NCBI GenBank assembly: GCA_963674965.2
Contig: CAXXFL010000001.1
Span: forward strand, 1,280,001-1,344,000
Direction of reading: 5' to 3'
DNA: 64,000 nt
Source of the DNA: a bacterium
GTDB lineage: Bacteria > RBG-13-61-14 > DATKZS01
Shown here: positions 4,824 through 35,366 of the stretch, one piece after another
Position numbering within the stretch: the stretch's first letter is position 1
Layout: the number at the start of each line of letters is the position of its first letter
Position numbers and translations under genes: made by a program
Notes under the pieces: generated by a model
Told to the model about the DNA's origin: nothing
The model's input: only the letters and a program-made list of their open reading frames with translations
Databases searched by the model: none

Positions 4824-4876
4824 CCGGTTCCACCAAAATTTTTATCGATTATTAGGCAAGAGGAAAAGGACCGGGC

Positions 4877-5080: not shown

Positions 5081-5190
5081 ATTGATTCCCTATTATTATC
5101 TTTATTGCATTATCCGAACGTTATAGAAAAGCTCGGCGTCACGGCGGCTTTTGGTTTCGGACCAGACGGTAAACCGACGGGTTAATGATA

Positions 5191-6396
5191 TCAGGAAAAT
5201 ACTTGGCTTTCCAAAAGAAGCGGGGCCGAAAGAGTCTCGGCCGACCGGGTCGCCGCGTTTTTCTCGTTAAAACCGCCTTGATGGGCGGGGCCCTGGGCCA
5301 GGTCATCTCTCGAGGCCACGGCGTAGGGGACCGCCCCTCCCCGGTGGCCCCTTTCCCTGACCGGCGTTTCGTGGTCGGGAAGGAGAAGGACCCTGTAGTC
5401 GTCGAATTTTGTCAGCCCCTCGAGCACCGTTCCCACCGCTCTTTTATCGAAATCCTCGATGGCCTTGATTTTCAGGTCCAGGTCTCCCTCGTGCCCGGCC
5501 TCGTCCGGGGCCTCGACGTGAAGAAATACAAAGTCCACTTCCTCGAGCACCTCGAGAACGGCCATGGCCTTGCCCTCATAGTCGGTATCCACGTAGCCCG
5601 TCGCGCCGGGGACCTCGACTATCTTCATCTTCAACATGCGGGCCAGCCCTCGAATGAGGTCAACTCCCGTGACCACGGCGCTCGAAAGCCCGTGCCTCTC
5701 TGAAAAGGGCGGCAGGGCCGCGGGCCGGCCCATGCCCCAGAACCAGACGCCGTTAATCGGAGGCTTGCCCAATTTCTTTCTCGCCTGGTTGACGGGATGG
5801 TCCTTTAAAAGGTCGATGGCCTTTTGCTGAAGACCCTCGATGAATTCTCCGCCCGGGCCAGAGGGAGCAATGTCCCGTATAGGCTTTCCCGCGTAGTCGT
5901 GAGGCGGCTTTAAGTCGGGGGAACCGTCAAAGCCCGTCACGAGGCACAGGTTTCTGAAACTTACTCCGGGCACGAACTTGACGTCCTTGCCCGCCATCAT
6001 GGTCTTGATGGTCTCGATGATGGCCCTTTGTTCGTCCCAGGTGGGATGGCCGCCGCTGTAATCGGCCATAACAAGCTCGCCGTCCTTGTGGGCCAGGCTG
6101 ACAAGGTTCATACGAAAGGCCACTTGCCCGGGCTTGAGAGTTATGCCCAGAGCGGCGGCCTCGATGGCCGCCCGGCCCGTGTAGTACATATCCGGGTCGA
6201 AGCCCAATATGGACATGTTCGCCACGTCGCTGCCCGGTTCCATACCGGCGGGCACCGTCTCGACCAGGCCCAGCCGGCCCGAGTCGGCGATCAGGTCCAT
6301 GTTAGGAGTATCGGCCAACTCGAGAGGCGTTTTGTTGTCCCGTTCGGATTGGGGGTCGTCGGCCATGCCGTCGCCCAGTAATACAATGTATTTCAT
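5191..6396 (-). CDS. apgM: Cofactor-independent phosphoglycerate mutase, archaeal-type
   Basis: Starts MKYIVLLGDGMAD (ATG at 6396); PGSDVAN, HVEAPDEAGH and PDHETP motifs. Confidence 0.9.
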   Translation of the reverse strand: MKYIVLLGDGMADDPQSERDNKTPLELADTPNMDLIADSGRLGLVETVPAGMEPGSDVANMSILGFDPDMYYTGRAAIEAAALGITLKPGQVAFRMNLVSLAHKDGELVMADYSGGHPTWDEQRAIIETIKTMMAGKDVKFVPGVSFRNLCLVTGFDGSPDLKPPHDYAGKPIRDIAPSGPGGEFIEGLQQKAIDLLKDHPVNQARKKLGKPPINGVWFWGMGRPAALPPFSERHGLSSAVVTGVDLIRGLARMLKMKIVEVPGATGYVDTDYEGKAMAVLEVLEEVDFVFLHVEAPDEAGHEGDLDLKIKAIEDFDKRAVGTVLEGLTKFDDYRVLLLPDHETPVRERGHRGGAVPYAVASRDDLAQGPAHQGGFNEKNAATRSAETLSAPLLLESQVFS

Positions 6397-19663: not shown

Positions 19664-22600
19664 ATGTCGAAAAAGGACATGAGAAAAACCAAGGCCGAAC
19701 TGGTAAAGGAGTTGGAGGAACTCCGGGGGAAAGCCTCGCTTTCTTCGCCCCGTGATTTGGAAGATATCAAGTCGGACCGCAACGAGTTCCATCTAATGGC
19801 CAGGAAAATATTCGACAAATGCCGCGATCTTACGGGCGCCCGGTCCGGTTACGTGGCCTTGCTCAACGAGAGGGGAGACGAGAACGAGGTCATTTTCCTC
19901 GAGGCTGGCGGACTGCCGTGCAGCGTCTCGCCCGACCTGCCCATGCCTATCAGGGGCCTCAGGGCCCAAGCCTACGATCAAGGAAAGGTCGCCCTCGATA
20001 ACGACTTCATGAACGGCGAATGGGCCAAGCTCATGCCCGAGGGTCACGTTGACCTGGACAACGTTCTTTTCGCTCCCCTTAACGTACGCGGCCAAACCAG
20101 GGGCCTTATTGGCCTGGCCAACAAACCGGGCGGGTTCTCCGAACTTGACGCCAGGATTGCCGCCGCCATGGGCGATATTTGCGCCTCCGAGCTGGAAAAG
20201 CACGTCATTCGGGACGAGCTGGCCAGGAGCGAGGCGCTGTTCCGAGAAATGTTCCACGGCCACAGTTCGGTGAAACTGCTCATCGATCCGGAAACGGGCG
20301 AGTTAGTGGCGGCCAATGAGGCCGCCTGCAAATTCTACGGGTACGATGAGGACGTCTTCAAGTCCATGAATATTACACAGATCAACGTCCTACCCGCCCG
20401 GGAAGTATTCGAGAGGATGTCCGCCGCCATCAGCGGGGACGAGTCGAGGTTTTTCTTCCAGCATCGGCTGGCCTCGGGAGAGGTTCGCCACGTTGACGTC
20501 CATTCCTCACCCGTCAAGGCGCTGGGCAAAAAGCTTCTTTACTCGGTAGTTCACGACGTTACCGAAAAGAAGGAGGCGGAACGGGGAATTCGGGACCGCG
20601 AGGAAACTCTTCGCGCTCTGGTTGACGCCTCCCTCGATAAAATAATGCTCATGGACCTGGATGGAACGGCGCTGGCGGTTAACGACGCCTTTGCCAAAGG
20701 TTTCGGACTGGCCGTCAAGGACGTCCTCGGACGAAACGCCTTTGAACTTCTTCCGCCCGAGAACAGAGCGGGGCGAGAGGAAAAAGTCGCGGAGGTTATC
20801 AGGTCGGGCCGGCCGGTTCGTTTCGTGGATAAAAGAGGGGCCGCGGTCCTGGAAAATCACATTAACCCCGTGTTCGACGGGGAAGGCAACGTCGCTCGGC
20901 TGGCCGTTTACGGCCGGGATATTACCGAGCGGCTGGAGGCCGAACAGAAGCTGCGGGAAAGCGAGGCCAAATACCGGCTCATGGCCGATAACGTTTCCGA
21001 CCTGATCTGGGCCATGGACCTCGAGTTGAACCATACTTATATCAGTCCCTCCATCGAGAAGATGTCTGGCTTCACCGCCGAGGAAATCCTGCAAATGAAG
21101 CCCGCGGACTTTATGACCCCCGAGTCTCTGGAGAAGGTCGGTCATCTTTTCCTCCGGGAATTCGCCAAAGTCAAGGAGGACCCCGAGTCGGCCTCCGAGC
21201 CCACGACTTTCGAGCTTGTATATTATAAAAAGGACGGAAATCTTCTTCCCGTCGAGGTAAGCGCGCGTTTCCTGGTTGACGAAAAAGGGAATCCCACCGG
21301 GATTTTGGGGATCACGCGAGACATTTCCGAAAGGAAAAGGGCGGAGGAAAAAGTCCTCGAGAGCGAAAGAGAGCTTCAACTGACCCTCGACGCCACCACC
21401 GACGGCATATGGAAATGGAACTTTTTAACCCACGAGATGTTCTTCAGCAACAAGTACTATGCCATGCTCGGTTACGAGCCGGGAGAGTTCGAGCCCTCCT
21501 ACGAGAACTGGGCCGACCTGATACATCCCGACGACCTCGAGACGACCCTGGCCGTGGCCCGGGAATACCTCGAGACCAAGCCCGACTTTTACCGGAACGA
21601 GTTCAGGCTGAGGACCAAAAGCGGCGATTACCGATGGATCAGCGCCGAGGCCCGGGTGGTGGAAAGGGATGAGTCCGGAGGGGCCGTGAGGATGATCGGC
21701 CATCACCGGGACGTGACCGAGAGAAAACAAAATGAGCGGGCCCTCGAGTTGGCGGCCCGGGAATGGAGCCGGACCTTCGACGCCATTCCCGACTCGGTCA
21801 TGATCATCGACAACTCGTTCAATATTATCCGGGCCAACCGGGCGGCGGTAAGGCTGGCGGGTAACTCGCCGGACGACGTTTTGGGGAGGAAATGTTTCGC
21901 GGTCCTTCACGGAAGCGACGCTCCCCCATCCTTTTGTCCCCACGTCCGGGCGATCAAGGACGGCAAGTCCCACAGCGAGGAAGTATACGAGCCCAAGCTG
22001 GAAGGGCACTTTATCGTCAGCGCTTCCCCCATATTCGACGCCTCGGGCAAGCTGGACCGCGTGGTCCACGTCATGAGGGACGTCACCGAAAGGAAAAACC
22101 AGGAAAACAGGATCAGAGATCAGCACCAGTTCATGGAAAAAGTCTTCGACGCGGCCTCGGAGGGTATCTTCGTTCTCGATCAGGACGCCAGGTACGCGCT
22201 TATAAATCGGTCGTGGGAACAAATTTTCGGGTTCGCGAGAGGGGAATATATCGGGAAAAAAGCGGGAACAACCATTGGCGAGGAATACCGGGACGTGGTG
22301 GCCGAGGCCTTCGATAAAGCCTATAAGGGACAAAGAGAACGCTGCGAGTTCGTATTCAAGGGGAAAGGGGGTAAGGAAAAGATAATCGACCTTGGCCTGA
22401 GCCCGCTTATTTGGCATGAAGAGATGCACGTACTGGGCATGGCCCAGGATATAACCCAGAAGAAAAAAGCGGAACGGGAGCTGAAAAGAAGCCAGGCCGA
22501 GCTGTCCGCCATTCTTCATAACGCGCCGGTCCTGGTAATGCTCGTGGACCGGGAGCGGCGAGTGCTGAAAATCAACGGATACGCGAGCGACCAATCCGGA

Positions 22601-24703
22601 AATCCGCCGGAGAAGCTTATCGGCCTGCGGGGAGGCGAGGCCCTGAGATGCGTCCACCATCTTGACGACCCCGGGGGATGCGGCTATGGGGAGGCCTGTC
22701 GGGAATGCCGCGTAAGACGAGCGGTCATGGATACCTTCGAGACCGGCGAGGGCCGGGAGCGTATCGAGTGCAATTTTTCCTTTATCAAGGAGGGGGACCG
22801 CGAGTCCAGCGAGAAAACTCTCCTGGTTTCGACCGCCCTTCTCGAGGTGGGCGAGACGGAGGCCGCGCTGGTCTGTATCGAGGACGTGACCGATTTGAAG
22901 GAGGTGGAAAAAGCCCTCAGGACCCGGCTCGAGTACGAGCAGGCCCTGGGCGAATGCTCGAAGCTCCTTCTTTCCGAGACGGCGGATGAGGACCCCATCG
23001 AGGACGTCCTTTCAAATCTTCTTCAGACCACCGAGGTCGACCGCGTCTACCGCTTCGAAAACTTCGAGGACCCGGAAAAGGGAACTTGCATGAGGCAGAC
23101 CATCGAGGTCCTCGCGCCCGGCGTCGAGCCGGCCATGGGCCGAGCGCCCATGGAGGGGCTTCCCTATAAAGAAGGCTTCTCGCTATGGCGAAGAGAGCTC
23201 TCCCAGGGCATGCCCATCATGGGCCCGGTTTCCTCCTTCCCTCTCGAGGAAAGGCGAGCGCTCGAGCCAAGGGGAATACTTTCCATCCTCGTTCTGCCCA
23301 TCCAGATAAACGGGGAATGGGAAGGTTTTGTGGGCTTCGACGACGTCACCCGCGGGCGCGGCTGGAGCGAGGAGGACGTGAGATTGATGGAGACGGCCGT
23401 CGAGATGATCCAGTCCCATGAGGAAAGAAAGCGGGCGCGCCTGGGCCTTATCGAGTCCGAAAACCTGTTCCGGCGCCTTTTCGATAACGTGACGAGCGGA
23501 ATAATCATGACGGGCCCGGACGGTAAAATCCTGATGATAAATTCCCACGCCCTCTCCCTTTTGGGCCTCGATGAAGGCATAATCGGCAAGGACCCCGCCG
23601 AGACGGTCCCCGCCGCCGCGCCGCTTTTTTCGCGCCTCCACCTTGGACACCAGAACCGGGCGGAGGTGACCCTGGCCTCGGGCGACGAGCTTCTCCTGGG
23701 CTACACCAGCGTCGAGGTGGACCTGCCGGAGGGAAAGGGACTGATCACCCTCTTCAGGGACATCGGCCGTCTCATGCAGGCCGAGGACAGAAGAAGGCGC
23801 GCCGAGCAGCTCGCCCAGGTGGGAGAGCTGGCCGCCAGGCTGAGCCACGAGATCAAGAACCCCCTGGCCTCGATCATGGCGGGCCTGCAGCTTCTTGACG
23901 GCAACCTGTACCTCCGGTCGGATGACAACCTCGTGCTTCAGACCATTATCGAGGAGGTAAAAAACGTCAGCCACCTGGTGAGCGGCATCCTGGACGCGGC
24001 CCGCTTCGAGGTGGTAAATCCCGAGACGGTGGACCTCGCCACGCTGCTTAGAGACGCGGGGGATTTGTTCTTCAGCCTTTCCAGGAAAAAGGGCATAGAC
24101 GTCCGGGTCGAGGCCGAGACCTCGGGCTTGTCCGTTTTTCTTGACAGGAGGTCCTTTGGCAGGGCCATCGCAAACCTTGTCAACAACTCGATCGAGGCCA
24201 TTTTCACAAATGGAAGAATCGACGTCGTTTCCCGGCTCCTGAGTCCGGCTGAGAAGGGTCTCCTTTTTCCAGGCTTCCAGGGGGAAGTGGCCGAGATACG
24301 GGTGGCGGACGACGGGCCGGGCATTCCGGAGCATGAGTTGGAGAAGGTGTTCAGCCCCTTTTACACGACCAAGGAATCGGGCACGGGCCTGGGCCTGGCC
24401 GTGGCCCGCGACGTGGTCGAGTTCCACGGCGGGGTCATGCGAGCGGGCAACGCCGAGGGCGGAGGCGCCGTTTTCCAGATATATCTGCCGGCCGGCGAGC
24501 GCGCCGTATGCAGCGATATGGGAATATGCTCGGCCGAGGATTGCGACGCCTGTCCGACCAAAAAGTGCGGCATGACCCTGCTTTGCTGGTCCAATAAGGT
24601 CGAGGAGGCAAGGCTCGAGGGGTTCCGCTACCCGGAAAAATGTCCGGACTGCGCGGTGTTCAGGCAGGGAAACCTGTCGCATTTCTATAAACCGAGGGAC
24701 TGA
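19664..24703 (+). CDS. Cytoplasmic multi-GAF/PAS sensor histidine kinase with C-terminal Cys-rich domain
   Basis: Repeated PAS/PAC ends (DVTEKK, DITER, DISERK); H-box SHEIKNPL, NLVNNS, DDGPGI, PFYTTKESGTGLGL; no obvious transmembrane helix. Confidence 0.93.
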   Translation: MSKKDMRKTKAELVKELEELRGKASLSSPRDLEDIKSDRNEFHLMARKIFDKCRDLTGARSGYVALLNERGDENEVIFLEAGGLPCSVSPDLPMPIRGLRAQAYDQGKVALDNDFMNGEWAKLMPEGHVDLDNVLFAPLNVRGQTRGLIGLANKPGGFSELDARIAAAMGDICASELEKHVIRDELARSEALFREMFHGHSSVKLLIDPETGELVAANEAACKFYGYDEDVFKSMNITQINVLPAREVFERMSAAISGDESRFFFQHRLASGEVRHVDVHSSPVKALGKKLLYSVVHDVTEKKEAERGIRDREETLRALVDASLDKIMLMDLDGTALAVNDAFAKGFGLAVKDVLGRNAFELLPPENRAGREEKVAEVIRSGRPVRFVDKRGAAVLENHINPVFDGEGNVARLAVYGRDITERLEAEQKLRESEAKYRLMADNVSDLIWAMDLELNHTYISPSIEKMSGFTAEEILQMKPADFMTPESLEKVGHLFLREFAKVKEDPESASEPTTFELVYYKKDGNLLPVEVSARFLVDEKGNPTGILGITRDISERKRAEEKVLESERELQLTLDATTDGIWKWNFLTHEMFFSNKYYAMLGYEPGEFEPSYENWADLIHPDDLETTLAVAREYLETKPDFYRNEFRLRTKSGDYRWISAEARVVERDESGGAVRMIGHHRDVTERKQNERALELAAREWSRTFDAIPDSVMIIDNSFNIIRANRAAVRLAGNSPDDVLGRKCFAVLHGSDAPPSFCPHVRAIKDGKSHSEEVYEPKLEGHFIVSASPIFDASGKLDRVVHVMRDVTERKNQENRIRDQHQFMEKVFDAASEGIFVLDQDARYALINRSWEQIFGFARGEYIGKKAGTTIGEEYRDVVAEAFDKAYKGQRERCEFVFKGKGGKEKIIDLGLSPLIWHEEMHVLGMAQDITQKKKAERELKRSQAELSAILHNAPVLVMLVDRERRVLKINGYASDQSGNPPEKLIGLRGGEALRCVHHLDDPGGCGYGEACRECRVRRAVMDTFETGEGRERIECNFSFIKEGDRESSEKTLLVSTALLEVGETEAALVCIEDVTDLKEVEKALRTRLEYEQALGECSKLLLSETADEDPIEDVLSNLLQTTEVDRVYRFENFEDPEKGTCMRQTIEVLAPGVEPAMGRAPMEGLPYKEGFSLWRRELSQGMPIMGPVSSFPLEERRALEPRGILSILVLPIQINGEWEGFVGFDDVTRGRGWSEEDVRLMETAVEMIQSHEERKRARLGLIESENLFRRLFDNVTSGIIMTGPDGKILMINSHALSLLGLDEGIIGKDPAETVPAAAPLFSRLHLGHQNRAEVTLASGDELLLGYTSVEVDLPEGKGLITLFRDIGRLMQAEDRRRRAEQLAQVGELAARLSHEIKNPLASIMAGLQLLDGNLYLRSDDNLVLQTIIEEVKNVSHLVSGILDAARFEVVNPETVDLATLLRDAGDLFFSLSRKKGIDVRVEAETSGLSVFLDRRSFGRAIANLVNNSIEAIFTNGRIDVVSRLLSPAEKGLLFPGFQGEVAEIRVADDGPGIPEHELEKVFSPFYTTKESGTGLGLAVARDVVEFHGGVMRAGNAEGGGAVFQIYLPAGERAVCSDMGICSAEDCDACPTKKCGMTLLCWSNKVEEARLEGFRYPEKCPDCAVFRQGNLSHFYKPRD

Positions 24704-26095
24704 ATGCAGGCAACCGTTTTAATCGTGGACGACAACGCCGAACTGGCGGGCTTTCTCGAAAGACTGCTCGCCGCCGAGGGCTTCGACGCGTCCTCCTCCA
24801 ACGACGCGGCGCAGGCCAGGAAAGACATGGCCCGCCTGTACCCCGACGCCGTCCTAATGGACATCAAGCTTCCCGACGCCAATGGCGTAGAACTTTTAAG
24901 CGAGATGAAAAAACTCTACCCCGAGACCCAGTTCATCATGATGACCGCCTTCGCCAGCGTGAAGACGGCCATTAAAAGCATCAAAATCGGGGCCTACGAT
25001 TACCTCTCCAAGCCGTTCGACTCGGGCGAAATGATATACCTTCTAAACAACGCGCTCCAGGAAAAGGCCATGAGGGAAGAGCTGGCCCTGCTTCGTTCCG
25101 AGCGCGCGGCGCCCTCATCCAAGTCCGGCGTCCTCGAGTATCCGAGCTCGGTCATGAAAACCACCATGGCCATGTGCGAAAAAATCGCGCCCGGCAAGGG
25201 CAACGTGCTGCTTACGGGCGAGAGCGGGGTGGGCAAAAATTACCTGGCGGGCGTCATCCATACCCTCTCGAGCCGGGTGAAAGGGCCCTTCTTCGATATT
25301 AACTGCGCATCTCTCGCGCCCTCCCTCATCGAGTCGGAGCTCTTCGGCCACGAGCCCGGGGCCTTTACCGGCGCCAGGGGAAGGAGAAGGGGACTGATCG
25401 AGCTGGCCCATAACGGGACCCTTTTTCTCGACGAGATTGGCGACATGCCAGTCGAGCTGCAGGCCAAGCTGCTTTCCTTCCTTGACACGCACAAGCTTCG
25501 AAGGCTGGGAGGCGAGAAAGTCGTCGAGGTCGACGTAAGGATTATCGCCGCCACCAACCGGGACCTTAAAAAACTCATCGGCGAGGGACGCTTCCGGGAG
25601 GACCTTTTTTATCGTCTGAACGTCGTGTCCATTGAAATCCCGCCGCTGCGCGCCCGCAAGGAGGACATACCCCTTCTCGTGGAGGAGATATGCCGGAGGA
25701 TCGCCTATGACATGGGACTTTCCCGGACCCCCCGGCCTTCACGCTCGGTCCTTAATAAACTGAAAGCCCACTCCTGGCCGGGAAACGTAAGGGAACTGAG
25801 AAACGCCCTGGAGCGGGCCATCATGCTCGCTCCCGACAAGACCGAGATTGCCGACCTCAGGCTGGAAGAAGGTCCCGGCGGCCACGCGACCGGCCCGGCC
25901 GGGGGCGACGCGATCTACGAGGTACGCCTTCCTCCAGAGGGAGTGGACCTCAAAGCCGTTAACAGGGACGTGTCACGGGCCCTGATCGAGGAAGCCCTGC
26001 GCCGCGCCGAGACCAAAAAGGAAGCGGCCGACCTGTTGGGCGTGACCAAGGACTCCCTGGCCCATTCGATCAAGACGCTGAAGATCAAGGCGTGA
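24704..26095 (+). CDS. Sigma54-dependent response regulator (NtrC family: REC-AAA+-Fis HTH)
   Basis: IVDDN, MDIKLPD, GESGVGK, ELFGHEPGAFTGA, LFLDEIG, WPGNVREL; ATG directly follows the kinase stop codon. Confidence 0.95.
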   Translation: MQATVLIVDDNAELAGFLERLLAAEGFDASSSNDAAQARKDMARLYPDAVLMDIKLPDANGVELLSEMKKLYPETQFIMMTAFASVKTAIKSIKIGAYDYLSKPFDSGEMIYLLNNALQEKAMREELALLRSERAAPSSKSGVLEYPSSVMKTTMAMCEKIAPGKGNVLLTGESGVGKNYLAGVIHTLSSRVKGPFFDINCASLAPSLIESELFGHEPGAFTGARGRRRGLIELAHNGTLFLDEIGDMPVELQAKLLSFLDTHKLRRLGGEKVVEVDVRIIAATNRDLKKLIGEGRFREDLFYRLNVVSIEIPPLRARKEDIPLLVEEICRRIAYDMGLSRTPRPSRSVLNKLKAHSWPGNVRELRNALERAIMLAPDKTEIADLRLEEGPGGHATGPAGGDAIYEVRLPPEGVDLKAVNRDVSRALIEEALRRAETKKEAADLLGVTKDSLAHSIKTLKIKA

Positions 26096-26314: not shown

Positions 26315-26330
26315 TGGCACGCCGCGTGCT
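26315..26330 (+). promoter_or_regulatory. Sigma54 -24/-12 promoter
   Basis: TGGCACGCCGCGTGCT with correct GG-N10-GC spacing, downstream of a sigma54 activator gene. Confidence 0.75.
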
Positions 26331-26367: not shown

Positions 26368-27048
26368 ATGATTATTCTAATCGTTGAAGACAATTTAAAC
26401 CTGGCGACGTTTACCTCGCGCAACATCATGAAGGAGAAGCCTTCATGGAAGGTCCTGGTCACGGGCTCGTGCTTCGAGGCCCGGAACGTCACGGACCATA
26501 TCACGCCGGATATAGCCCTGATAGACCTTAGCCTGCCGGACGGAAACGGTCTCGATCTTTTGTTCGAGCTTAGGATCAAGTGCCAGAACATGCCCGCCAT
26601 ACTTACCAGCGCCTCGGTCTCGAAGAAATTAACCGACGAGGTAAACAGCCTGGGCGGATACATGGTGTTGGAAAAGCCCTTCGACTTCCGGGACCTGGTG
26701 GCCGTGCTCGAGGACGCCGGAGGGAGGACCGGCCAAAGGAGCGTGGACGCGGAGGACCTGGAATCGCGGCGGCGGGAGGAAAAAGCCGACGGGGACTTGA
26801 GCCCGTATTCGCCCTGGACCTATTCCCCCAAAAGCGGGCTTAACTATCACCAGATGCTGAACCGCCTTTCGGGCCTGCTCGCCGGTATCCGGGCCTTCGA
26901 GGCCGAAGTCTGCGCCGCGGCGGGAGACGAGCGGGCCGTCCGCGAGGCGGCGGGCGAATACGTGGACAGGCTCTGCCGGATCGTCGGCGACATGACCCGG
27001 ATGGTCAATAGCGCCCGGGCGGCCGAGCCGGGAAAGGGCCGGCAATGA
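26368..27048 (+). CDS. Response regulator receiver with C-terminal HisKA/DHp-like helical domain
   Basis: IVEDN, LIDLSLPDGNG, EKPF; C-terminal HQMLNRLSGLLAG resembles an H-box. Confidence 0.8.
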   Translation: MIILIVEDNLNLATFTSRNIMKEKPSWKVLVTGSCFEARNVTDHITPDIALIDLSLPDGNGLDLLFELRIKCQNMPAILTSASVSKKLTDEVNSLGGYMVLEKPFDFRDLVAVLEDAGGRTGQRSVDAEDLESRRREEKADGDLSPYSPWTYSPKSGLNYHQMLNRLSGLLAGIRAFEAEVCAAAGDERAVREAAGEYVDRLCRIVGDMTRMVNSARAAEPGKGRQ

Positions 27049-27791
27049 GCAAGGAGCTGGAAATACTGTTCGTTGACGACGACCCCGACGTGAGCTGGTC
27101 CTTGTGCCGGCTGCTCACGCGCTCCGGCTTCTCGGTCATAACCTGCGGGGACGGGGCCGAGGCCATACCCATCCTGGAGGAAAAAAACTTCGACGTGCTT
27201 ATTACCGACGTCCAGATGCCCCAGGTAAACGGGCTGGCCCTCCTCGAGTGGGTCAGGCAAAATCGGCCCGCCACCAAGGTAGTGGTGATCACGGCCTATG
27301 GCTCGCCCACGGTGAAGCACCTGAGCATGCGGAAGGGGGCCCTTCTTTACCTCGAGAAGCCTCTCGATCCCGATCTTTTGATCGAGGTCCTTCGCGAGTC
27401 GGAGAAGGAGGAGACCTTTTACGGGAACGTGCATCGGATCGATCTTTTCGATTACGTTCAGCTTTTAATCCTTACCCGCAGCAAGGCGGTTCTGGAAATC
27501 CATTCCCGAAACGGGAGGATGGGATTGCTTTTTTTTCATGGAGGCGAGGCCGTGCACGCCGAAACGGAGGCCCTGCGGGGCGAAGAGGCCTTCAACAAGC
27601 TCCTGGCCCTCGAGGGAGGAAGCTTTAACACGCTGCCCTGGCGCGAGCCCCTGGAGCGGACCATCCAGCGTGGAGGCGAGTCCCTTCTCATGGAGGCGGC
27701 CAGGATCAAGGACGAGTCCTCCCAGGAGGAGGCGCGGGGCGAGGAAAACGCGTGGGCGGAAGCGGGACTGGAGGAATGGGGAGAGGAATAA
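27045..27791 (+). CDS. Receiver domain + DUF4388 (PatA-N-like) protein
   Basis: FVDDD, TDVQMP, EKP; then FYGNVHRIDLFDYVQL...GEAVHA...GEEAF...LLMEAARIKDE. Confidence 0.88.
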   Translation: MSKELEILFVDDDPDVSWSLCRLLTRSGFSVITCGDGAEAIPILEEKNFDVLITDVQMPQVNGLALLEWVRQNRPATKVVVITAYGSPTVKHLSMRKGALLYLEKPLDPDLLIEVLRESEKEETFYGNVHRIDLFDYVQLLILTRSKAVLEIHSRNGRMGLLFFHGGEAVHAETEALRGEEAFNKLLALEGGSFNTLPWREPLERTIQRGGESLLMEAARIKDESSQEEARGEENAWAEAGLEEWGEE

Positions 27792-27809: not shown

Positions 27810-28289
27810 GTGAAAGGAATGGAAATAAACAAGGGCAAAGACGACGTGAAACAAATACTGGCTTCGCTTATCGATGCGTCCGGCGCCATGACCGCCCTTC
27901 TGGTGACCAAGCAGGGAAGCATCGTCTCGGACGCGGGCGATAAAAGCTACCTTAACATCACGGCCATGGCCGCCTTAATCGCGGGAATGTTCTCCGCCAC
28001 CAGGGAGGTGGCCAGGCTGGTGGGCGAAACCGAGTTTTCCATCCTTCTTCAGCAGGGCAAGAAAAGACATATACATATCTCGCTGATCACCGACGAGATC
28101 ATGATGGTGATAGTTTTCGAGGACTACAACCGAATCGGCCAGGTCAGGCACGAGGCCAGGAAAGCGAGCGAGCGCCTTGGCGCCTCGCTCGCTCCTGGCC
28201 GGGCCGAGCTCATGTCGGCCAAGGACATTTCCATGCCCGAGTTCAAGGAGTACGCCCTTAACCTGATCGACCGCATTTTTCAGGGGTAA
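27810..28289 (+). CDS. mglB: MglB-type roadblock/LC7 protein (predicted GAP of MglA)
   Basis: AALIAGMFSATREVARLVGETEF...IGQVR pattern; directly upstream of mglA. Confidence 0.88.
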   Translation: MKGMEINKGKDDVKQILASLIDASGAMTALLVTKQGSIVSDAGDKSYLNITAMAALIAGMFSATREVARLVGETEFSILLQQGKKRHIHISLITDEIMMVIVFEDYNRIGQVRHEARKASERLGASLAPGRAELMSAKDISMPEFKEYALNLIDRIFQG

Positions 28290-28300
28290 AGGCCGGCAAG

Positions 28301-28882
28301 ATGCCATATATCAACTACCAGGAAAAAGAGTTCAACTTCAAGATCGTGTATTACGGTCCCGGCATGAGCGGCAAGACGACGAACCTGGTTTACATACACA
28401 GGTCGCTCGACCCGGACCGCAAGGGCGAGCTGGTGATCCTGGACACGGAGGAGGAAAGGACCCTGTTCTTCGATTTCTTTCCCCTCGACCTGGGCGAGAT
28501 AGAGGGCTTCAACGTCAGGTTCAACATGTACACGGTCCCCGGCCAGGTCATGTACGAGGCCAGCAGGAAGCTCATCCTGGAAGGATCGGACGGCGTCATC
28601 TTCGTGGCCGACTCCCGCCCCGAGCGTTATGAGGCCAACATCGAGCTGTATCGGATGATGATCGCCAACCTCGAGTCCTACGGGCACGACCCCAAGACTT
28701 TTCCCACCGTGCTCCAGTACAACAAAAGGGACATGCCCGATCCCATTCCCGTCGGGTCCATCGAGAGGGACCTGGGACTTAACGGCATACCGGTTTTCGA
28801 GTCCGTCGCCACCAAGGGCGTCGGCGTAATGGACACCATCCGGAGAACGAGCCAGATGGTGATCGAGAAATTCCACCTATAA
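28301..28882 (+). CDS. mglA: MglA-family small Ras-like GTPase
   Basis: KIVYYGPGMSGKTTN, RTLFFDF, YTVPGQ, FVADS, QYNKRD. Confidence 0.95.
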   Translation: MPYINYQEKEFNFKIVYYGPGMSGKTTNLVYIHRSLDPDRKGELVILDTEEERTLFFDFFPLDLGEIEGFNVRFNMYTVPGQVMYEASRKLILEGSDGVIFVADSRPERYEANIELYRMMIANLESYGHDPKTFPTVLQYNKRDMPDPIPVGSIERDLGLNGIPVFESVATKGVGVMDTIRRTSQMVIEKFHL

Positions 28883-28898
28883 GGACGCGGGACCCAAA

Positions 28899-29651
28899 AT
28901 GGCGCTAAGAGGAAGCCTGGAAGACATGGACGTGTTCGAGCTTGTCCAGTTTCCCCATCAGGGAAGAAAAAGCGGCGAGTTGATACTCGTGGGCTCCGAG
29001 CACGAGGCGAGACTCTATTACCAAAAAGGAAAGCTCGTTCACGCCAGATACCTCGAGACAAAGGGACTCGATGTCCTGGTCGAGGTCCTGGGATGGTCGG
29101 AGGGAGTGTTCGAGTTCAGGCCCAACGAGGACTCGCCCGAAACCTCCATTGAGATGGACCTTCACCGGGCCGTTATGCAGGCGTTGAAAATCAAAGACGA
29201 GAAAACCATGACCAATGAGGCCGGGGAAAACGATAGCGAAAATTTGGTCCCTGAAAAACCCGATACCGAGACGGGCATGGATATCGCGGCGGACGATACG
29301 GCTAAATGGGCCAATTTCAAAGAGGCGGCGCAAAAAGAGAAGCCCATCCTCAGCGCGGTCCTGGTAAACGAGTCGGGACAATGCCTGGCCAGGGCGGGTA
29401 GAAATAAATCCGACAACGGCCTGGAAACGGAGAAGGTCAAGGATTTTCTTTTGCAATACGCGCTCGATCATCCCCGGCCGGGAATGAAGCGGATCATCAC
29501 CGAGGACGCGGGAGGAACGGTGGTCATGATCCCCATTTCACGCGGGATGTTTCTCGTGGCCCTGGCGGGCAAGGACGCTTCCCTTGGGGCGGCGTCGCTA
29601 AGCGCCAACCGGTTGGCCGAGTTCGCGGAGCGAAAAGGGGAGCCAAGATGA
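28899..29651 (+). CDS. DUF4388 domain + C-terminal roadblock-like domain
   Basis: MALRGSLEDMDVFELVQ...GKLVHA...WSEGVFEF; C-terminal AVLVNESGQ...ASLGAAS. Confidence 0.8.
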   Translation: MALRGSLEDMDVFELVQFPHQGRKSGELILVGSEHEARLYYQKGKLVHARYLETKGLDVLVEVLGWSEGVFEFRPNEDSPETSIEMDLHRAVMQALKIKDEKTMTNEAGENDSENLVPEKPDTETGMDIAADDTAKWANFKEAAQKEKPILSAVLVNESGQCLARAGRNKSDNGLETEKVKDFLLQYALDHPRPGMKRIITEDAGGTVVMIPISRGMFLVALAGKDASLGAASLSANRLAEFAERKGEPR

Positions 29652-30025
29652 CGCAACCGGCCGAGAAAATTGCCGCCGCGGCCCGGATTCTTGAGAGTTC
29701 CATCGAGGAGGAAGACCACGTCATGTACGCCTGCCTGATGGACGAGACGGGCAAGAGGGTGGCGGAAAAAGAAGGGGCGAAAACCGTCGAGGAGGCCCGA
29801 TCGATCAGGTCCAGCCTGCACGGTCTGGCCCAAGGCTATCCTCGCGGGGGCCTGGCCAGGGCCTTCATCGAGGACGAGATGGGCACGATCGCCCTGTATT
29901 GCGTCGCCGGCGATCTGTATCTGGCGGTCGCGGCCGAGCCCGGATCGCCTCTCGGAGCCGTCTCGATGACGGCCGGCCGCGTCGCGGAGCGGATAAAAAG
30001 CTCCCTCCAAACGGGACTCGAGTGA
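29648..30025 (+). CDS. Roadblock/LC7-like protein
   Basis: ACLMDETG...LYLAVAAEPGSPLGAV; resembles the C-terminal domain of the preceding gene; ATGA overlap. Confidence 0.7.
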   Translation: MTQPAEKIAAAARILESSIEEEDHVMYACLMDETGKRVAEKEGAKTVEEARSIRSSLHGLAQGYPRGGLARAFIEDEMGTIALYCVAGDLYLAVAAEPGSPLGAVSMTAGRVAERIKSSLQTGLE

Positions 30026-30029
30026 AGCT

Positions 30030-31082
30030 ATGAACACGGAACTGGAAAATAGTTACAAGCCCTTGTTGATTAAAACGGAGCCTCGCCCGGAAATGACCTT
30101 CGAGAGTTTCGTCACCTGCCGGGCCAACGAGTTTCCGGCCGAGGTGGCCAAGACCCTGGCCGAGGGACACACCCCCGCCTACAACCCGCTTTTTATTTAC
30201 AGCGACGTTGGACTGGGCAAGACCCACCTCCTTTACTCGATCGTCAATGAGGTCAACCGGATAGGCGAGGCTTCCATCGCCATATTCAACGCCGTCGACC
30301 TCGAGGCCGAGTTGGAGAGGGCGGACCGAATAGGCCGGCGGGCGGAGCTTCGGGATTGGCTCATTAAAAAGGACGTCCTTCTTATAGACGACGTCCAGTT
30401 CTGCGAGTCCAGCGAGTCCTTCCAAAAGGAGTTGTTCGCCATAATCAGCGGCATGACCTCGCTGAACAAGAGGGTGGCCATAACCTGCGACGTTCCTCCC
30501 ACCCGGCTCAGGGGCATCGAGAAACGGCTCATCTCCAGGCTGGGGGGAGGAGTTATCGTGAGCTTGCAAATGGCGGACCTGAACGCTCGGATCGAGATTC
30601 TGAGAAGGACCGCCGCCGAGGCCCCCATCGACGAGGACGTTTACAAATACCTGGCCGAGCGCATCGACGACAACGTGCGAAGGCTAAAGGCCGCCGTTTA
30701 CCAGCTTCTGGTCCATCACCGGGAGACGGGAGTGGAGATAAACATCGAGCTGACTCGGGCCATAATACCCATGCCCGAGGACCTGGCTCATGGACCCGCT
30801 CGGGAGGACGAGGCCCGAGGAGCGTCGGGAAAGCGGTCCGGCTCGGAACGGGAAACCTCGGCCTCGGGGATCGACCGGTTCAAGAAAATGCTCCAGAGCG
30901 CTGAAAACGAAAGGGAGCAGGCCCTGGCCCTGCAGATAGCCATAGGCGAACGCATAAGGCAGCTTCGAGGCAAGGAAGAAAACCGGCAGACCCTGGAAAA
31001 ATTAAATAACGCCCTCAGCCTTCTTCGGGCGGGAGAGCTTAAGGCGGCCGTCGAGTTTATGGCCGAGATAGGCGGGGATTGA
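30030..31082 (+). CDS. DnaA/Hda-family AAA+ ATPase lacking DnaA domains I, II and IV
   Basis: TFESFV, YNPLFIYSDVGLGKTHLL, LLIDDVQF, RLISRL, NVRRL; no C-terminal DnaA-box-binding HTH. Confidence 0.88.
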   Translation: MNTELENSYKPLLIKTEPRPEMTFESFVTCRANEFPAEVAKTLAEGHTPAYNPLFIYSDVGLGKTHLLYSIVNEVNRIGEASIAIFNAVDLEAELERADRIGRRAELRDWLIKKDVLLIDDVQFCESSESFQKELFAIISGMTSLNKRVAITCDVPPTRLRGIEKRLISRLGGGVIVSLQMADLNARIEILRRTAAEAPIDEDVYKYLAERIDDNVRRLKAAVYQLLVHHRETGVEINIELTRAIIPMPEDLAHGPAREDEARGASGKRSGSERETSASGIDRFKKMLQSAENEREQALALQIAIGERIRQLRGKEENRQTLEKLNNALSLLRAGELKAAVEFMAEIGGD

Positions 31083-31249: not shown

Positions 31250-31600
31250 ATGGCAAGCAAAGCGAACGGAATCATCAAGGAATTGAGCGGCACGGACGGC
31301 GTTCATGAGGTCCTGGTCGTGGGACGCGACGGTTTCGTAATCGACCACGTGGGCGACATGGACGCGGACGGAGTTGGCGCGGTTGTGTCCACCGCCATCG
31401 GCGCCATCGAGGCCATGGGAAGGGACACGGAGCAGGGAAACCTGTTCGAGATCATGGCCGAGTACAACGAGGGGACCATAATAGCCGCGCCCGTGGGCAG
31501 GGACGCCGTGTTGGGCATGGTCGCCAGCTCGAGCGCCAATCTTGGCGGCATACGCCACGCGGCCAAAAAGGCCATACGTGACCTGGAAAGGGCCCTGTAG
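31250..31600 (+). CDS. Roadblock/LC7 domain protein
   Basis: LVVGRDGFVI...EYNEGTII...ANLGGIR; AAGGAG RBS. Confidence 0.9.
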   Translation: MASKANGIIKELSGTDGVHEVLVVGRDGFVIDHVGDMDADGVGAVVSTAIGAIEAMGRDTEQGNLFEIMAEYNEGTIIAAPVGRDAVLGMVASSSANLGGIRHAAKKAIRDLERAL

Positions 31601-31627
31601 GGCGGGGCCGGGAAAAGGAGAGATGAA

Positions 31628-32095
31628 ATGGCGGAAAAAGTAGACGTTAAGGCGGTCGAGGCGATCCTTTACGGGCTCTACAAGGCCCTTCACAAACTGG
31701 CGGGGGCCAGCGCCCCGGCGGTAATGCGCCAGGCGGCGCCGGACATGCTCGAGGAACTGGGCAAGCTGGGGGTGGACTTCTCCTGCGTCGACGACATCGA
31801 CAAGCTTCAGAGCAAGCTGGGAGACACCGTGACCAACACCGGGCTGTGCGACAAGATCGAGTTCTCGAAGAACGGCGACGACCTGACGGCCAAGATACAC
31901 GGATGCTCATTTTACGGCCTGACCAGTCAGCTCAAGTCCGAGGGCATCGAGCCTTTTGGCTGCCCTTTCGCCGCTCTTACCGTGGCCCTGGCCGAGAAGA
32001 ACCTGGGTAAGCGGGCCAAGGTCAAGGAACTCCATCCCACGGCGGGAGGAGGACCGGGCGACACGACCCTGATAGTCGAGATGCACGAAAAATAA
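31628..32095 (+). CDS. V4R/H-NOX-fold-like protein (hypothetical)
   Basis: Helical N-terminal half, then TGLC...IHGCSF...GCPFA Cys pattern; AAGGAG RBS. Confidence 0.6.
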   Translation: MAEKVDVKAVEAILYGLYKALHKLAGASAPAVMRQAAPDMLEELGKLGVDFSCVDDIDKLQSKLGDTVTNTGLCDKIEFSKNGDDLTAKIHGCSFYGLTSQLKSEGIEPFGCPFAALTVALAEKNLGKRAKVKELHPTAGGGPGDTTLIVEMHEK

Positions 32096-32163: not shown

Positions 32164-33171
32164 ATGGCCAGCGACCAGACCTTTAACCGCGGCGATCCCA
32201 AACGGGTTGTCTGGGGCCTCGAAGGATTGGATAGCAAGTCAATCAAAGCCGACGATCAACGCTCCTCGAACCAATTGTGGGAAAAGCTTAGCCAGGCGGC
32301 TCAAAACAAGTGGACGGGCCTGATCAACGTGACCCGCGACGGCCGGACAATTGGAAGCGTCGTTCTGCAAAAGGGTTTCGTGGCCTGGGCCGTGAGCAGG
32401 GGCCAGAGCAACTCGCTGGGAGAACTCCTCGGCAAGGTTGGCCTGCTCTCGAGCCATGACGTGATGAGGGCGCAGAACGAATACATAAAAAACAAGGGAC
32501 GAAAGAAACTGGGCGCCATCCTCGAGGAAATGGGACTCATTCAAAGGCCGGTGCTGAGAAGGTGCCTTCTCCTTCATACCAGGAGCGCCCTGGAGGAACT
32601 GCTTAAATATGACGACGCCGAGACCTCGGTGTCCGAGAAGTCCTTCGAGGCCGACGAGCGCATTATTTTCGAGCTTGGCGAAATACTCCCGTCACTGGGG
32701 GGGACCGACGCGGAATTCAACGGCGGCGGTCTCTGGCGCGGGAGGCCGGAGTGGTACGGCAGGAACGAGGACAACGAGGAACTGGCTTTCCTTGCCTCGG
32801 TGCTCGGTTACCAGGCCGCGGCCGTTATCTCGGCCAAGGGTGAAATCCTTTCCGCCCATTGCGCGGCCAAGGATATTGACCCGGTATTGATCGGGATTTA
32901 CCTGACCTCGATCCTCGACACCTCCGCCCGCACGGTATATCCCAATCCTTTGGCCAACGTTAAGTTTATCTATCTCGAGTGCTCCGACCATACCCTGGTC
33001 TCGAGATGGATAGACGAGGAAAAAACCCATATCATCGCCGTCGTGCTCGCCAACGGCGGCGGCGTGGGCATGGCCAAATATCTTATGGACGGGCGCCTCG
33101 GCGAGCTTCGGAATTGGCTTTTTACCGGCCAACGCAAAAGCCAGGGCGGCCAGGGACGTCCCGGGCATTGA
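32164..33171 (+). CDS. DUF4388-like + tandem MshEN-like motifs + C-terminal roadblock-like domain
   Basis: WTGLINV...GFVAWA; LGELLGKVGLL and KLGAILEEMGLI; AAAVISAKGEIL...GVGMAK. Confidence 0.65.
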   Translation: MASDQTFNRGDPKRVVWGLEGLDSKSIKADDQRSSNQLWEKLSQAAQNKWTGLINVTRDGRTIGSVVLQKGFVAWAVSRGQSNSLGELLGKVGLLSSHDVMRAQNEYIKNKGRKKLGAILEEMGLIQRPVLRRCLLLHTRSALEELLKYDDAETSVSEKSFEADERIIFELGEILPSLGGTDAEFNGGGLWRGRPEWYGRNEDNEELAFLASVLGYQAAAVISAKGEILSAHCAAKDIDPVLIGIYLTSILDTSARTVYPNPLANVKFIYLECSDHTLVSRWIDEEKTHIIAVVLANGGGVGMAKYLMDGRLGELRNWLFTGQRKSQGGQGRPGH

Positions 33172-33172
33172 A

Positions 33173-33661
33173 ATGCAGGTCATACACGAATTGAACGAGG
33201 CGGCGGCGGCGGGAGACCTCGAGGAGGTAAAAAGACTGTTGGCCGCCGGTAAAAACGTTGACGGTCTCGACCAGTACAGCGAGACGCCTCTCCACCGCGC
33301 CGCCTGGGGAGGAAGCCTTTCCGTGGTAAGGCTCCTTCTTGAAAACGGGGCCGAGGTCAACGCGAGAACGCCCTACGGCAAAACGCCTCTTCATCGTTGC
33401 GCCGCGCAAGGCCACGTCGAGATAACCAGGCTTCTTCTCGAGAGGGGCGCCGAACCGAACGCCAAGAATCGGGACGGGGAAACGCCCCTTCATTGGGCCG
33501 CCAAAAAAGGCCAAATCGAGACGGTGGAGATTCTTCTCGCCCGCGGCGCCGCGACGGACGTGGTGAACGTAAACGGAAGGTCCGCCGAAGACCTGGCCCT
33601 GGCGAACGATTTCACTCTGGTGGCCGAGCGAATCGCAAGGGCCAATGAAACCGGCCAATAA
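33173..33661 (+). CDS. Ankyrin repeat protein
   Basis: ETPLHRAA, KTPLHRCA and ETPLHWAA repeats with LLENGAEVN-type ends. Confidence 0.95.
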   Translation: MQVIHELNEAAAAGDLEEVKRLLAAGKNVDGLDQYSETPLHRAAWGGSLSVVRLLLENGAEVNARTPYGKTPLHRCAAQGHVEITRLLLERGAEPNAKNRDGETPLHWAAKKGQIETVEILLARGAATDVVNVNGRSAEDLALANDFTLVAERIARANETGQ

Positions 33662-33709
33662 AAAAGCCGATCTTGATAAAGCCCCGGCGACGATTGGCGG
33701 GAGAAATTA

Positions 33710-34831
33710 TTGACGGATTGCGCAAAAAAATTGGAAGACAGCCTCAGCCTCGACGGCGCGGCGCTGGACCTTTCAGGCCGCGGCCTGACCGGCGTGCCCG
33801 AGGAGGTTTTCGCCATGACCTCCCTCGAGGGCCTCAACCTTGAAAAAAACAGGATTACCGAGATTGACGCGCGAATAGAAAACCTGACAAGCCTCAAATG
33901 GCTAAAGCTCGAAAGAAACAGACTGTCCCACCTGCCGCCTTCCCTTGGCGGCCTCCCCCAGCTGGAAGTCCTCGAGGCGGGATTTAACCGCCTCGAGGGA
34001 CTTCCAGAAGAAATCACGCTTTGTAAAAATCTGCGCGTCCTGAACGTGGTTTATCAGAAGCCTCCTCTTAAGGAGGAGAAGCGCCTGGGAAAAAGCGGAT
34101 TGGCCCGGCTTCCCGAAACATTGGGGGACCTTTCGCGCCTGGAAATCTTGGACGTGAGGCTAAACCGGATCGAGTATCTTCCCACCTCGGTCTTCGAGCT
34201 CAAGTCCCTTAAGACGCTAATGATCAACAATAATCTGATAAAAGAGCTTCCCGAGAGGATCGGCCTCGCCGCGTCCCTGGAAGAGATATGGGCGTCAAAC
34301 AACCTGATCCGGGAACTCCCCCCGCGAATTGGAGAGCTTAAAAACCTGAAAAAACTCTGCCTGAGCGGAAATCGACTCGAGGAACTTCCCCGCCGGATAG
34401 GGGAACTCGAGTCCCTCGAAAAACTCGACCTCTCTGGAAATGAACTAAGCTTCCTGCCGGCAAGCATCGGTGACCTTCACAACCTCGAGTACCTGTGGCT
34501 GAACCATAACCATCTTCGCTCCCTGCCCCGGGAGATAGGAAAATTGGGAAAGCTTAAGTGGATGTTTCTCAAGGAGAACCGCCTTGTATCCCTTCCTCGG
34601 GAAATGGGGAACATGACGAGCCTTACCAGGCTGGACTTAGGCTGCAACCGGCTGACCCAGGTCCCCGCCGAGCTCGAGGGCCTCCACGAACTTGAGGAAA
34701 TGTGGATTGACAACAACCTCCTCGAAAAGCCCCCTCGCGGCCTTATGGCCATGAAGGGTCTCGAAAATCTCCACATGTACGGAAACAGGTTCCACGCCGA
34801 GACCGAAATCCCGGGAAAGGAGGGCGCATGA
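33710..34831 (+). CDS. Leucine-rich repeat protein (23-aa LPxxIGxLxxL type)
   Basis: More than a dozen LxxLxLxxNxLxxLPxxIG units; TTG start. Confidence 0.93.
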   Translation: MTDCAKKLEDSLSLDGAALDLSGRGLTGVPEEVFAMTSLEGLNLEKNRITEIDARIENLTSLKWLKLERNRLSHLPPSLGGLPQLEVLEAGFNRLEGLPEEITLCKNLRVLNVVYQKPPLKEEKRLGKSGLARLPETLGDLSRLEILDVRLNRIEYLPTSVFELKSLKTLMINNNLIKELPERIGLAASLEEIWASNNLIRELPPRIGELKNLKKLCLSGNRLEELPRRIGELESLEKLDLSGNELSFLPASIGDLHNLEYLWLNHNHLRSLPREIGKLGKLKWMFLKENRLVSLPREMGNMTSLTRLDLGCNRLTQVPAELEGLHELEEMWIDNNLLEKPPRGLMAMKGLENLHMYGNRFHAETEIPGKEGA

Positions 34832-35214
34832 ACGCCTCGAGCGAAGCCGAATCGGCCGATTATATAATAAGCCCGACTCCGTTTCCTCATGGCGTCCGCG
34901 TGCTTATAAAGCCGGAGCCGGAAACCCCCAAGGAATGGATAGAGTTGGAGATCGGCGGAGAGACCATCGCCCGGGCGAACATCCTCAGGGAAGGCCGCCG
35001 GGTCACGGTCAAATTCATAACCGTGCATCCCTCCCATGAAAGACAAGGGGTGGCCGGCTCGATCCTGGCCGAGCTGAAAAAAAACCACTCCGAGATCGTC
35101 GCCCAGGGCGTTAAATACCAAGCCAGGGGATTCTGGGAAAAATGCGGCTTTCAAAGAATGGGAAAAACGAAAAACTGGAGATGGACGTCCGACTCGCCAA
35201 GCTTCCCGCCATAA
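34828..35214 (+). CDS. GNAT-family acetyltransferase
   Basis: VHPSHERQGVAG (acetyl-CoA motif A) and ARGFWEKCGF; ATGA overlap with the LRR gene. Confidence 0.8.
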   Translation: MNASSEAESADYIISPTPFPHGVRVLIKPEPETPKEWIELEIGGETIARANILREGRRVTVKFITVHPSHERQGVAGSILAELKKNHSEIVAQGVKYQARGFWEKCGFQRMGKTKNWRWTSDSPSFPP

Positions 35215-35366
35215 GTCCCGGATTAATTTCTCCTCCTCTGCCCGGGATAGAGATATCCGACCAGTAATACAAGGCCCGCCATATTTTTTGCCTTCCCTAA
35301 AAAAAATCTCCTCTAACCTATACAAGCCGGGGTTTTTTGTGATAAAATCGGGCGGAGGTTTCGGAA

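Follow-up and report, generated by a model that had tools for sequence, protein, structure and literature searches.

The DNA analysed here, a stretch of 64,000 nucleotides (nt) hereafter called the window, comes from a bacterial genome (assembly GCA_963674965.2, contig CAXXFL010000001.1, positions 1,280,001 to 1,344,000) and carries a gene whose closest relative is the replication initiator DnaA. The product of this gene, named DnaAL, is an AAA+ ATPase encoded inside a signalling cassette. The order of that cassette is PAS kinase, NtrC-type activator, sigma-54 promoter, receiver proteins, MglB-like protein, MglA-like protein, PATAN protein, DnaAL and Roadblock protein. What might an initiator-type ATPase be doing in such company? 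Judged from its sequence, DnaAL is a member of a conserved, undescribed family derived from domain III of DnaA, in which the DNA-binding elements have been lost, and it is probably part of a Ras-like cell-polarity switch, not a replication protein. The gene and its most distinctive part are located as follows:

30030..31082, plus strand: gene for DnaAL (P0001), a DnaA-like AAA+ ATPase of 350 amino acids, with AAA+ domain III at about residues 21-250, a linker at 256-276 and a tail at 278-348

30876..31079, plus strand: C-terminal tail domain of DnaAL, residues 283-350, conserved in the family and also fused to PATAN-Roadblock proteins

The protein opens with MNTELENSYKPLLIK... and, as the original prediction had it, begins nearly at domain III of DnaA. 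The Pfam model Bac_DnaA (PF00308) covers residues 21-177 (E 1.2e-35, 123.5 bits), the other Pfam matches being weaker P-loop families only, and neither Bac_DnaA_C (PF08299) nor DnaA_N matches the protein. The NCBIfam DnaA equivalog TIGR00362 reaches 196.3 bits against a cut-off of 343.9; because it is matched at model positions 101-335 of 437 only, domains I, II and IV are missing from DnaAL, in which some 20 residues precede domain III. Within the ATPase core, Walker A reads S58-D-V-G-L-G-K64-T65 and Walker B L-L-I-D120-D121, while R166 and R170 represent box VII and N-V-R217 sensor II; the Walker B, arginine-finger region and sensor II first read from the letters are all there. An AlphaFold2 model made from a 28-sequence alignment (predicted local distance difference test score, pLDDT, 86) displays an AAA+ fold at residues 31-245, a disordered segment at 256-276 and four helices at 278-348, and both model and Pfam bear out the earlier view that a linker and an unrelated helical tail replace domain IV. 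In Foldseek searches with this model, domain III of DnaA from B. subtilis and T. maritima came out on top (8bv3_A, template-modelling score, TM, 0.90, root-mean-square deviation 2.3, 33% identity; 2z4r_A, TM 0.90, 35% identity). Structures of the DnaA regulator Hda scored far lower (Shewanella 3bos_B, E 1.8e-10, TM 0.71, 18% identity). DnaAL and the DnaA of its own genome are 31% identical across 240 residues of domain III.

DnaAL is not alone. A protein search retrieves 58 relatives of 303-439 amino acids (P0002-P0059, 194-448 bits), 55 of which cover 90-98% of the query and none of which contains PF08299; below them stand two tandem forms at about 190 bits, followed by canonical DnaA at 148 bits or less. 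The source labels of the relatives are only "DnaA/Hda family protein", "ATP-binding protein" or similar, and no description of a family of this type was found in the literature searched, from which the gene-neighbourhood supplementary table S2 of PMC4316618 was left aside. A locus scan with the whole protein returned one locus only, in a Chloroflexi metagenome-assembled genome (MAG; 34% identity). In a 28-member alignment of the family, residues G61, G63, K64, T65, D120, D121, D154, R170 and R217 are invariant, and Pfam finds Bac_DnaA_C or DnaA_N in none of the 28. In a mapping on Escherichia coli DnaA, all 22 members compared retain the equivalents of K178, T179, D235, D236, D269, R285 and R334, and 21 of the 22 retain that of R281 (R166 in DnaAL). 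DnaAL is therefore like DnaA in its domain III fold, Walker A and B, sensor I, the R281 and R285 equivalents and sensor II; unlike DnaA, it scores below the DnaA cut-off, is without domains I, II and IV, and has gained a linker and a four-helix tail. The replacement of the first Walker A glycine, on which the original prediction remarked, holds for DnaAL (S58) but is no trait of the family: among 58 full-length representatives this position is Gly in 26, Ala in 17, Ser in 10 and unmatched in 5. An N-terminal extension of about 45 residues, present in 36 of these 58, is missing from DnaAL and from the other 22. The ratio of nonsynonymous to synonymous substitution (dN/dS, Nei-Gojobori) lies between 0.125 and 0.213 in family pairs with dS below 1.3, and equals 0.256 for DnaAL of the window versus its sister.

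The relationships of the family were examined in an IQ-TREE phylogeny of 67 AAA+ regions (257 columns), in which Hda is represented by one named sequence, that of E. coli, and by one possible Hda-like frame. The DnaAL family and two short derivatives form a clade at 100/99, 35 canonical DnaA proteins, including those of the host genomes, lie on one side of a branch at 94/97, and the tandem proteins make up a separate clade at 100/98. Since the family clade stands apart from the hosts' own DnaA, DnaAL is not a recent copy of the hosts' dnaA. These results also dispose of the most deflationary explanation, that of a decayed and functionless dnaA duplicate, which can be regarded as already refuted. 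Such a relic would explain why DnaAL is a truncated version of DnaA lying on the same contig as dnaA, but it is contradicted by 58 orthologues sharing an added conserved tail, by a dN/dS of 0.12-0.26 with invariant catalytic residues, by an intact frame tightly packed in an operon, and by a separate clade that is not nested among the hosts' DnaA. The caveat that the gene might be a decayed fragment devoid of orthologues thus falls away: the orthologues exist, and they are under purifying selection.

What the family has given up concerns DNA binding. In E. coli DnaA, V211 and R245 bind single-stranded DNA (H and B motifs, DNA unwinding element), and R285 is the arginine finger (passages of PMC5716108). 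Throughout the DnaAL family these single-strand-binding residues are replaced, mostly by acidic ones, unlike in DnaA: the V211 position is Glu in 17 of 22 members (Glu96 in DnaAL), and the R245 position is Glu or Asp in 15 of 22 (Ser130 in DnaAL). The residues K243, R227 and E204 of E. coli DnaA are not kept in these 22 members either. Could DnaAL nevertheless still act on nucleic acid through unrecognised surfaces, as a chromosome anchor for the module or as an IstB/DnaC-like loading factor? The initiator-clade fold is kept, and Pfam IstB_IS21 matches DnaAL at 32.6 bits (cut-off 24.1) and also all 28 members. The DnaA model, however, scores far higher at 123.5 bits, and two helper models stay well below their cut-offs (NCBIfam IS21 helper NF038214, 43 bits where 200 are needed; DnaI, 19 bits where 228 are needed). 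With domain IV absent, the H and B motif positions mostly acidic, and the conserved neighbours found by tblastn all signalling genes (no search was made for a transposase or helicase gene), we hold this explanation to be very improbable.

The tail is what the family has gained. A 65-residue C-terminal tail segment is present in 58 of the 59 family proteins, and a profile of it, run against 1.84 billion representative proteins, gives 109 matches at E <=0.001, C-terminal in every case. Among these, 68 proteins are at least 300 amino acids long: 58 with the DnaA-like ATPase, two N-truncated family members, one WHEP-TRS false positive and seven others. Five of the seven ATPase-less proteins match PATAN (one of them also Roadblock), the other two Roadblock only; all seven align with a PATAN protein of the window, PATAN_c, over 260-287 residues at 29-34% identity, and five match the window tail directly (32-41% identity). 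Each of 28 DnaAL loci, the window counted, has exactly one tail. An origin as a domain IV remnant minus its helix-turn-helix, suggested by a MAFFT alignment that put the tail on the flanking helices of domain IV, was rejected (hhalign probability 0.13%, E 0.45). The structure searches are likewise devoid of any likeness to domain IV, and the proviso in the original prediction that the tail might fold as that domain can be dropped. Foldseek against the PDB retrieved nothing with the tail at E <=0.001. VIA-align over 48,161 chains gave generic helical bundles (best Z 6.7), domain IV not being among the best 50 matches listed, while a PDB sequence profile search found only designed TPR proteins (E 1.8e-5 over 30 residues) and the ESM Atlas no usable match.

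Scanned with the tail profile, species genomes yielded 27 related loci, whose neighbouring genes were identified by tblastn with the window proteins. The features of the window cassette, with their support, are listed below.

19664..24703, plus strand: multi-PAS/GAF histidine kinase of 1679 amino acids, head of the cassette (Pfam; homologues upstream in related loci)

24704..26095, plus strand: NtrC-type sigma-54 activator with receiver, Sigma54_activat and HTH_8 (Pfam; synteny)

26315..26329, plus strand: sigma-54-type promoter-like site TGGCACGCCGCGTGC, with 1 mismatch, ending 38 nt ahead of the first receiver gene

26368..27048, plus strand: receiver-domain protein RR1 (Pfam; synteny)

27045..27791, plus strand: receiver and PATAN (DUF4388) protein (Pfam; 23 of 27 related loci)

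27810..28289, plus strand: MglB-like Roadblock/LC7 protein (Pfam; NCBIfam MglB 58 bits, under cut-off; 25 of 27 loci)

28301..28882, plus strand: MglA-like small GTPase of 193 amino acids (Pfam Arf and small_GTP, weak; orthologues 55-77% identical in 23 of 27 loci)

28899..29651, plus strand: PATAN_b, a PATAN (DUF4388) protein, the usual gene directly upstream of DnaAL (Pfam; nearest upstream match in 24 of 27 loci)

29648..30025, plus strand: open reading frame (ORF) of 125 amino acids without family match, overlapping the PATAN_b stop by 4 nt and ending 4 nt before DnaAL

31250..31600, plus strand: Robl3, a Roadblock/LC7 protein (Pfam; 24 of 27 loci)

31628..32095, plus strand: conserved protein of 155 amino acids without Pfam match (18 of 27 loci)

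32164..33171, plus strand: PATAN_c, a PATAN protein, tail-less in the window (orthologues in DnaAL-less cassettes carry the DnaAL-type tail)

The neighbourhood is therefore kept well beyond the window, and the placement of the gene inside a GTPase operon, together with the co-occurrence with mglA and roadblock genes that was proposed as a check, is borne out: MglA accompanies the gene in 23 of the 27 related loci, the MglB-like protein in 25 and Robl3 in 24. These loci are all in MAGs, labelled as Myxococcota (including Polyangia and Bradymonadales), as Thermodesulfobacteriota (Desulfomonilaceae, Syntrophales), or less specifically ("delta proteobacterium"). The PAS kinase and the NtrC-type activator usually open the cassette. 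In the window, the genes between 26368 and 35214 all share a strand, none of the gaps exceeds 167 nt, and no terminator-like site was found on the plus strand after the DnaAL gene. The sigma-54-type site lies directly downstream of the NtrC-type activator gene; in 13 of 16 related loci a GG-N10-GC site precedes the counterpart of the first receiver gene, the background being 0.13 per 460 nt. Read from the sequence, it is probably the cassette's own PAS kinase and NtrC-type activator that turn it on. The window genome has four MglA paralogues (the others 56%, 47% and 42% identical to the window copy), and only one DnaA-like ATPase of this kind.

Several other members of the gene string deserve a word. 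The 125-amino-acid ORF is matched by an evident orthologue (52% identity) in the sister genome G005 alone; that it might be a second Roadblock was considered and rejected (no Pfam match at E <=1, no similarity to the Roadblock gene at 31250). The 155-amino-acid protein is among the best-conserved products of the cassette (39-86% identity, above 60% in 17 of the 18 loci having it), and its look-alikes in the ESM Atlas carry RdxA_C, MJ0207 or ATC_hydrolase in a minority of members. Residues 85-135 of PATAN_c match NCBIfam NF053729, an MshE-related motif that binds cyclic di-GMP (E 1.1e-4, below cut-off), and the matching stretch is conserved in seven tail-bearing orthologues; the PATAN insertion of this protein may bind cyclic di-GMP. 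From 33173 to 36872 the string runs on, on the plus strand, with ankyrin-repeat, leucine-rich-repeat and GNAT acetyltransferase genes and a fusion of metallo-beta-lactamase, cyclic-nucleotide-binding (cNMP-binding) and Crp-HTH domains, and ankyrin genes follow the cassette in many related loci. Wastewater metatranscriptome contigs match the Roadblock gene (31359-31621, 3 differences in 263) and the 155-amino-acid gene (31700-31875, 0 differences in 176); they may be transcripts of the window organism or of a near relative, or carried-over DNA.

The number of copies varies from one genome to another. G017 has three copies of DnaAL, while G016 has two, plus two short tail-less derivatives located by receiver-PATAN genes. 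These derivatives (L062 and L063) are frames of 281-289 amino acids that nest in the family, with a long branch of their own; their Walker B reads Asp-Asn, the box VII arginines are gone, and a receiver-PATAN gene precedes them.

A second lineage has put a DnaA-like ATPase in the same place. In Gemmatimonadota (L077-L104, L114 and L137), a tandem DnaA-like ATPase of 480-590 amino acids directly follows mglA in 27 of 30 loci, the other three having no upstream sequence; four such proteins (P0060, P0061, P0065 and P0075) contain two Bac_DnaA domains each. As in DnaAL, domain III of DnaA occurs here without domain IV and directly after mglA. The differences are the two AAA+ domains per chain, the clade of their own at 100/98, and the tail: a query with the window tail (E <=1e-4) found no match in the 30 loci. 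No paper on these tandem ATPases was found in the literature searched.

Since the closest relative of DnaAL is a replication initiator, replication itself must be considered. The window genome holds two Bac_DnaA matches and one Bac_DnaA_C match; the latter belongs to the separate canonical dnaA whose existence the original prediction wished to see confirmed. This gene (459 amino acids, G000:C1:1271872-1273251), with dnaN after it, stops 6.7 kb short of the window, which means that the window is probably close to the replication origin. The statement that no dnaN or gyrB lies nearby is correct for the window itself, and gyrB is on another contig, but dnaA-dnaN lies only about 37 kb upstream of DnaAL on the same contig. 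In G005, G016 and G017 the DnaAL copies and dnaA are on different contigs, and because the 37-kb distance is not repeated in other genomes we read it as chance. The reported absence of a DnaA-box array stands: the 64 kb contain 7 matches to TTATCCACA with at most one mismatch, against 5.55 expected, and only one of them (36977) is near the operon. Unlike dnaA, the gene for DnaAL thus belongs to an operon for GTPase signalling and has neither dnaN nor an origin at its side.

Might DnaAL then act as an Hda-like or DnaA-mimicking regulator, one that would stimulate hydrolysis of DnaA-bound ATP or cap DnaA oligomers, and so couple a sigma-54/MglA signal to replication initiation? Like Hda, DnaAL is a DnaA-related AAA+ protein without domain IV that keeps the box VII arginine (R170, 22 of 22 members); the arginine finger and R166 are those of DnaA domain III, its nearest relative. 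In the window genome no Hda passes the cut-off, and there are just two Bac_DnaA genes, one of them DnaAL, some 37 kb from dnaA-dnaN. In the tree, the branch of E. coli Hda is very long and does not join the family when the topology is free (backbone support 6 in the quick tree), but a clade forced to unite the two is not rejected by the approximately unbiased (AU) test (p-AU 0.372, with a single named Hda on a very long branch). The phylogenetic check proposed at the outset therefore separates the family from canonical DnaA and leaves an Hda clade unrejected.

The remaining evidence goes against such a role. The Hda equivalog TIGR03420 gives DnaAL 78.2 bits where 194.8 are needed, and identity and fold similarity to Hda (18%, TM 0.71 for Shewanella 3bos) are well below those to DnaA domain III (33-35%, TM 0.90). 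A clamp-binding motif of the QLSLPL type, essential for Hda according to passages of PMC5397184, is absent from the N-terminus of DnaAL, and the family alignment has no conserved Gln-Leu. The "LPDFL" of longer members was tried as a clamp motif and rejected, as it contains no Gln and belongs to the N-terminal extension that DnaAL and 22 of 58 representatives lack. Unlike Hda, DnaAL has an intact Walker A (GKT) and Walker B (DD), where E. coli Hda has R, S and D, N, and about 100 extra C-terminal residues. It also occurs in two to three full copies per genome (G016, G017), and its copies and dnaA lie on different contigs in G005, G016 and G017. One genome (G014) possesses a DnaA, a family member and a separate Hda-like frame (L060, G014:C310) that starts with the clamp-motif-like MIQLVMPL, and one cassette holds a Ser/Thr kinase in the DnaAL slot. 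An Hda-like function is accordingly quite unlikely; the modest probability left to it comes from a genome without Hda above the cut-off and from a weak tree backbone. We see a slim chance for a more specific variant, in which DnaAL would be a signal-induced mimic of DnaA: when the PAS kinase/NtrC/sigma-54 circuit is on, it would join or cap oligomers of ATP-bound DnaA through its DnaA-type interface and arginine finger, MglA and PATAN setting where or when through the tail. If so, bacteria without Hda would have their chromosome replication gated by a Ras-like polarity switch.

The interpretation to which we give somewhat better than an even chance is that DnaAL serves as an ATP-dependent oligomerising switch or scaffold of the sigma-54/NtrC-controlled MglA/MglB/PATAN module, docked by its tail. 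Of the two possibilities raised by the original prediction, it is the signalling scaffold that fits, given the kept cassette, the tail held in common with PATAN-Roadblock proteins and the second lineage placed after mglA, while the Hda-like link to replication finds little support. The oligomerisation of DnaAL, the partner of its tail and its cellular output are parts of this picture that we infer. ATP-bound DnaAL would assemble head to tail through its conserved arginine finger, much as DnaA does, but without DNA. The resulting oligomer would present several tails, which could dock on a partner within the module, be it MglA, a Roadblock dimer or a PATAN protein. The assembly would then come apart once the arginine finger sets off hydrolysis of ATP. 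In this manner the GTPase switch might be joined by a second switch or scaffold, DnaAL, that runs on ATP.

The same context and the same catalytic conservation would also suit an ATP-driven remodeller, whose AAA+ hydrolysis resets MglA-MglB or Roadblock-PATAN complexes with the tail as substrate adaptor. The conserved acidic residues at the former DNA-channel positions could conceivably contact a basic protein segment. Initiator-clade AAA+ proteins (DnaA, DnaC, Orc/Cdc6, IstB) are, however, known to act as assembly switches and are not known as unfoldases, and we consider remodelling unlikely.

A number of observations weigh against the switch or scaffold that we favour. Its DNA-free oligomerisation is assumed by analogy with DnaA, and R227, which presumably is the AID-1 residue needed for ATP-specific DnaA assembly, is replaced by I, T, A, C or V in the DnaAL family. 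The fold of the tail is a generic helical bundle with no informative match. In two loci (L022 and L043) MglA is missing beside DnaAL even though upstream sequence is present, two further MglA-less loci being cut by contig ends. In the Myxococcota locus L075, a Ser/Thr kinase of 440 amino acids (4030-5352, minus strand) fills the slot between PATAN_b and Robl3 in place of DnaAL. From these cases it follows that the module can do without the ATPase, and that the link of the ATPase to MglA is not a strict one. The family is also rare, being found in 2 of 13 genomes of the window's phylum, and its tail in at least 5 of 401 genomes sampled from the L019 phylum, where the best 15 candidates or fewer per genome were scored. 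Lastly, in the RNA run whose contigs match the two genes downstream, the DnaAL gene is matched only by a 50-nt Walker A piece with 5 differences, which marks it as derived from other organisms.

Cassettes devoid of the ATPase give further information about the tail. In L075, the nearby PATAN_c carries the tail. L076 has MglB, MglA, PATAN_b, Robl3 and two PATAN_c genes in series, without any ATPase; there the PATAN_c profile extends into the tail region, the tail profile itself being unmatched.

How does the module compare with known Ras-like systems? The polarity module of Myxococcus xanthus is composed of MglA, MglB, MglC and RomR/RomX. The window cassette is similar in that an MglA-type GTPase lies by an MglB-type Roadblock protein, with more Roadblock and receiver proteins; unlike that module, it has its own PAS kinase, NtrC-type activator and sigma-54 promoter. 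The Streptomyces conservon is also a multi-copy cassette, with a histidine kinase, a Roadblock protein and an MglA-like GTPase among its four proteins, CvnA-D, but as described in passages of PMC4316618 these include no PATAN protein, sigma-54 activator or AAA+ ATPase. PATAN genes are found near group 1 and group 5 mglA (passages of PMC4316618). The passages of that paper containing "ATPase" or "AAA" do not mention any DnaA-like ATPase, "dnaa" as a term is absent from the text available of PMC4316618 and PMC11580455, and no literature was found that links DnaA-like proteins with MglA, or the PATAN domain with AAA+ proteins.

Among the Ras-like switches of bacteria, none is better studied than the MglA/MglB modules, of which PATAN proteins are frequent but poorly understood partners. 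The presence of an initiator-type ATPase in MglA modules of at least three phyla, and in two architectures, argues for a second nucleotide switch, one that is missing from current models. The tail common to the ATPase and to PATAN-Roadblock proteins offers a handle for finding the contact partner. If DnaAL is indeed an ATP-dependent switch or scaffold of its module, the motor of DnaA would have been reused without DNA, which would bear on how new roles arise in the evolution of the AAA+ initiator clade.

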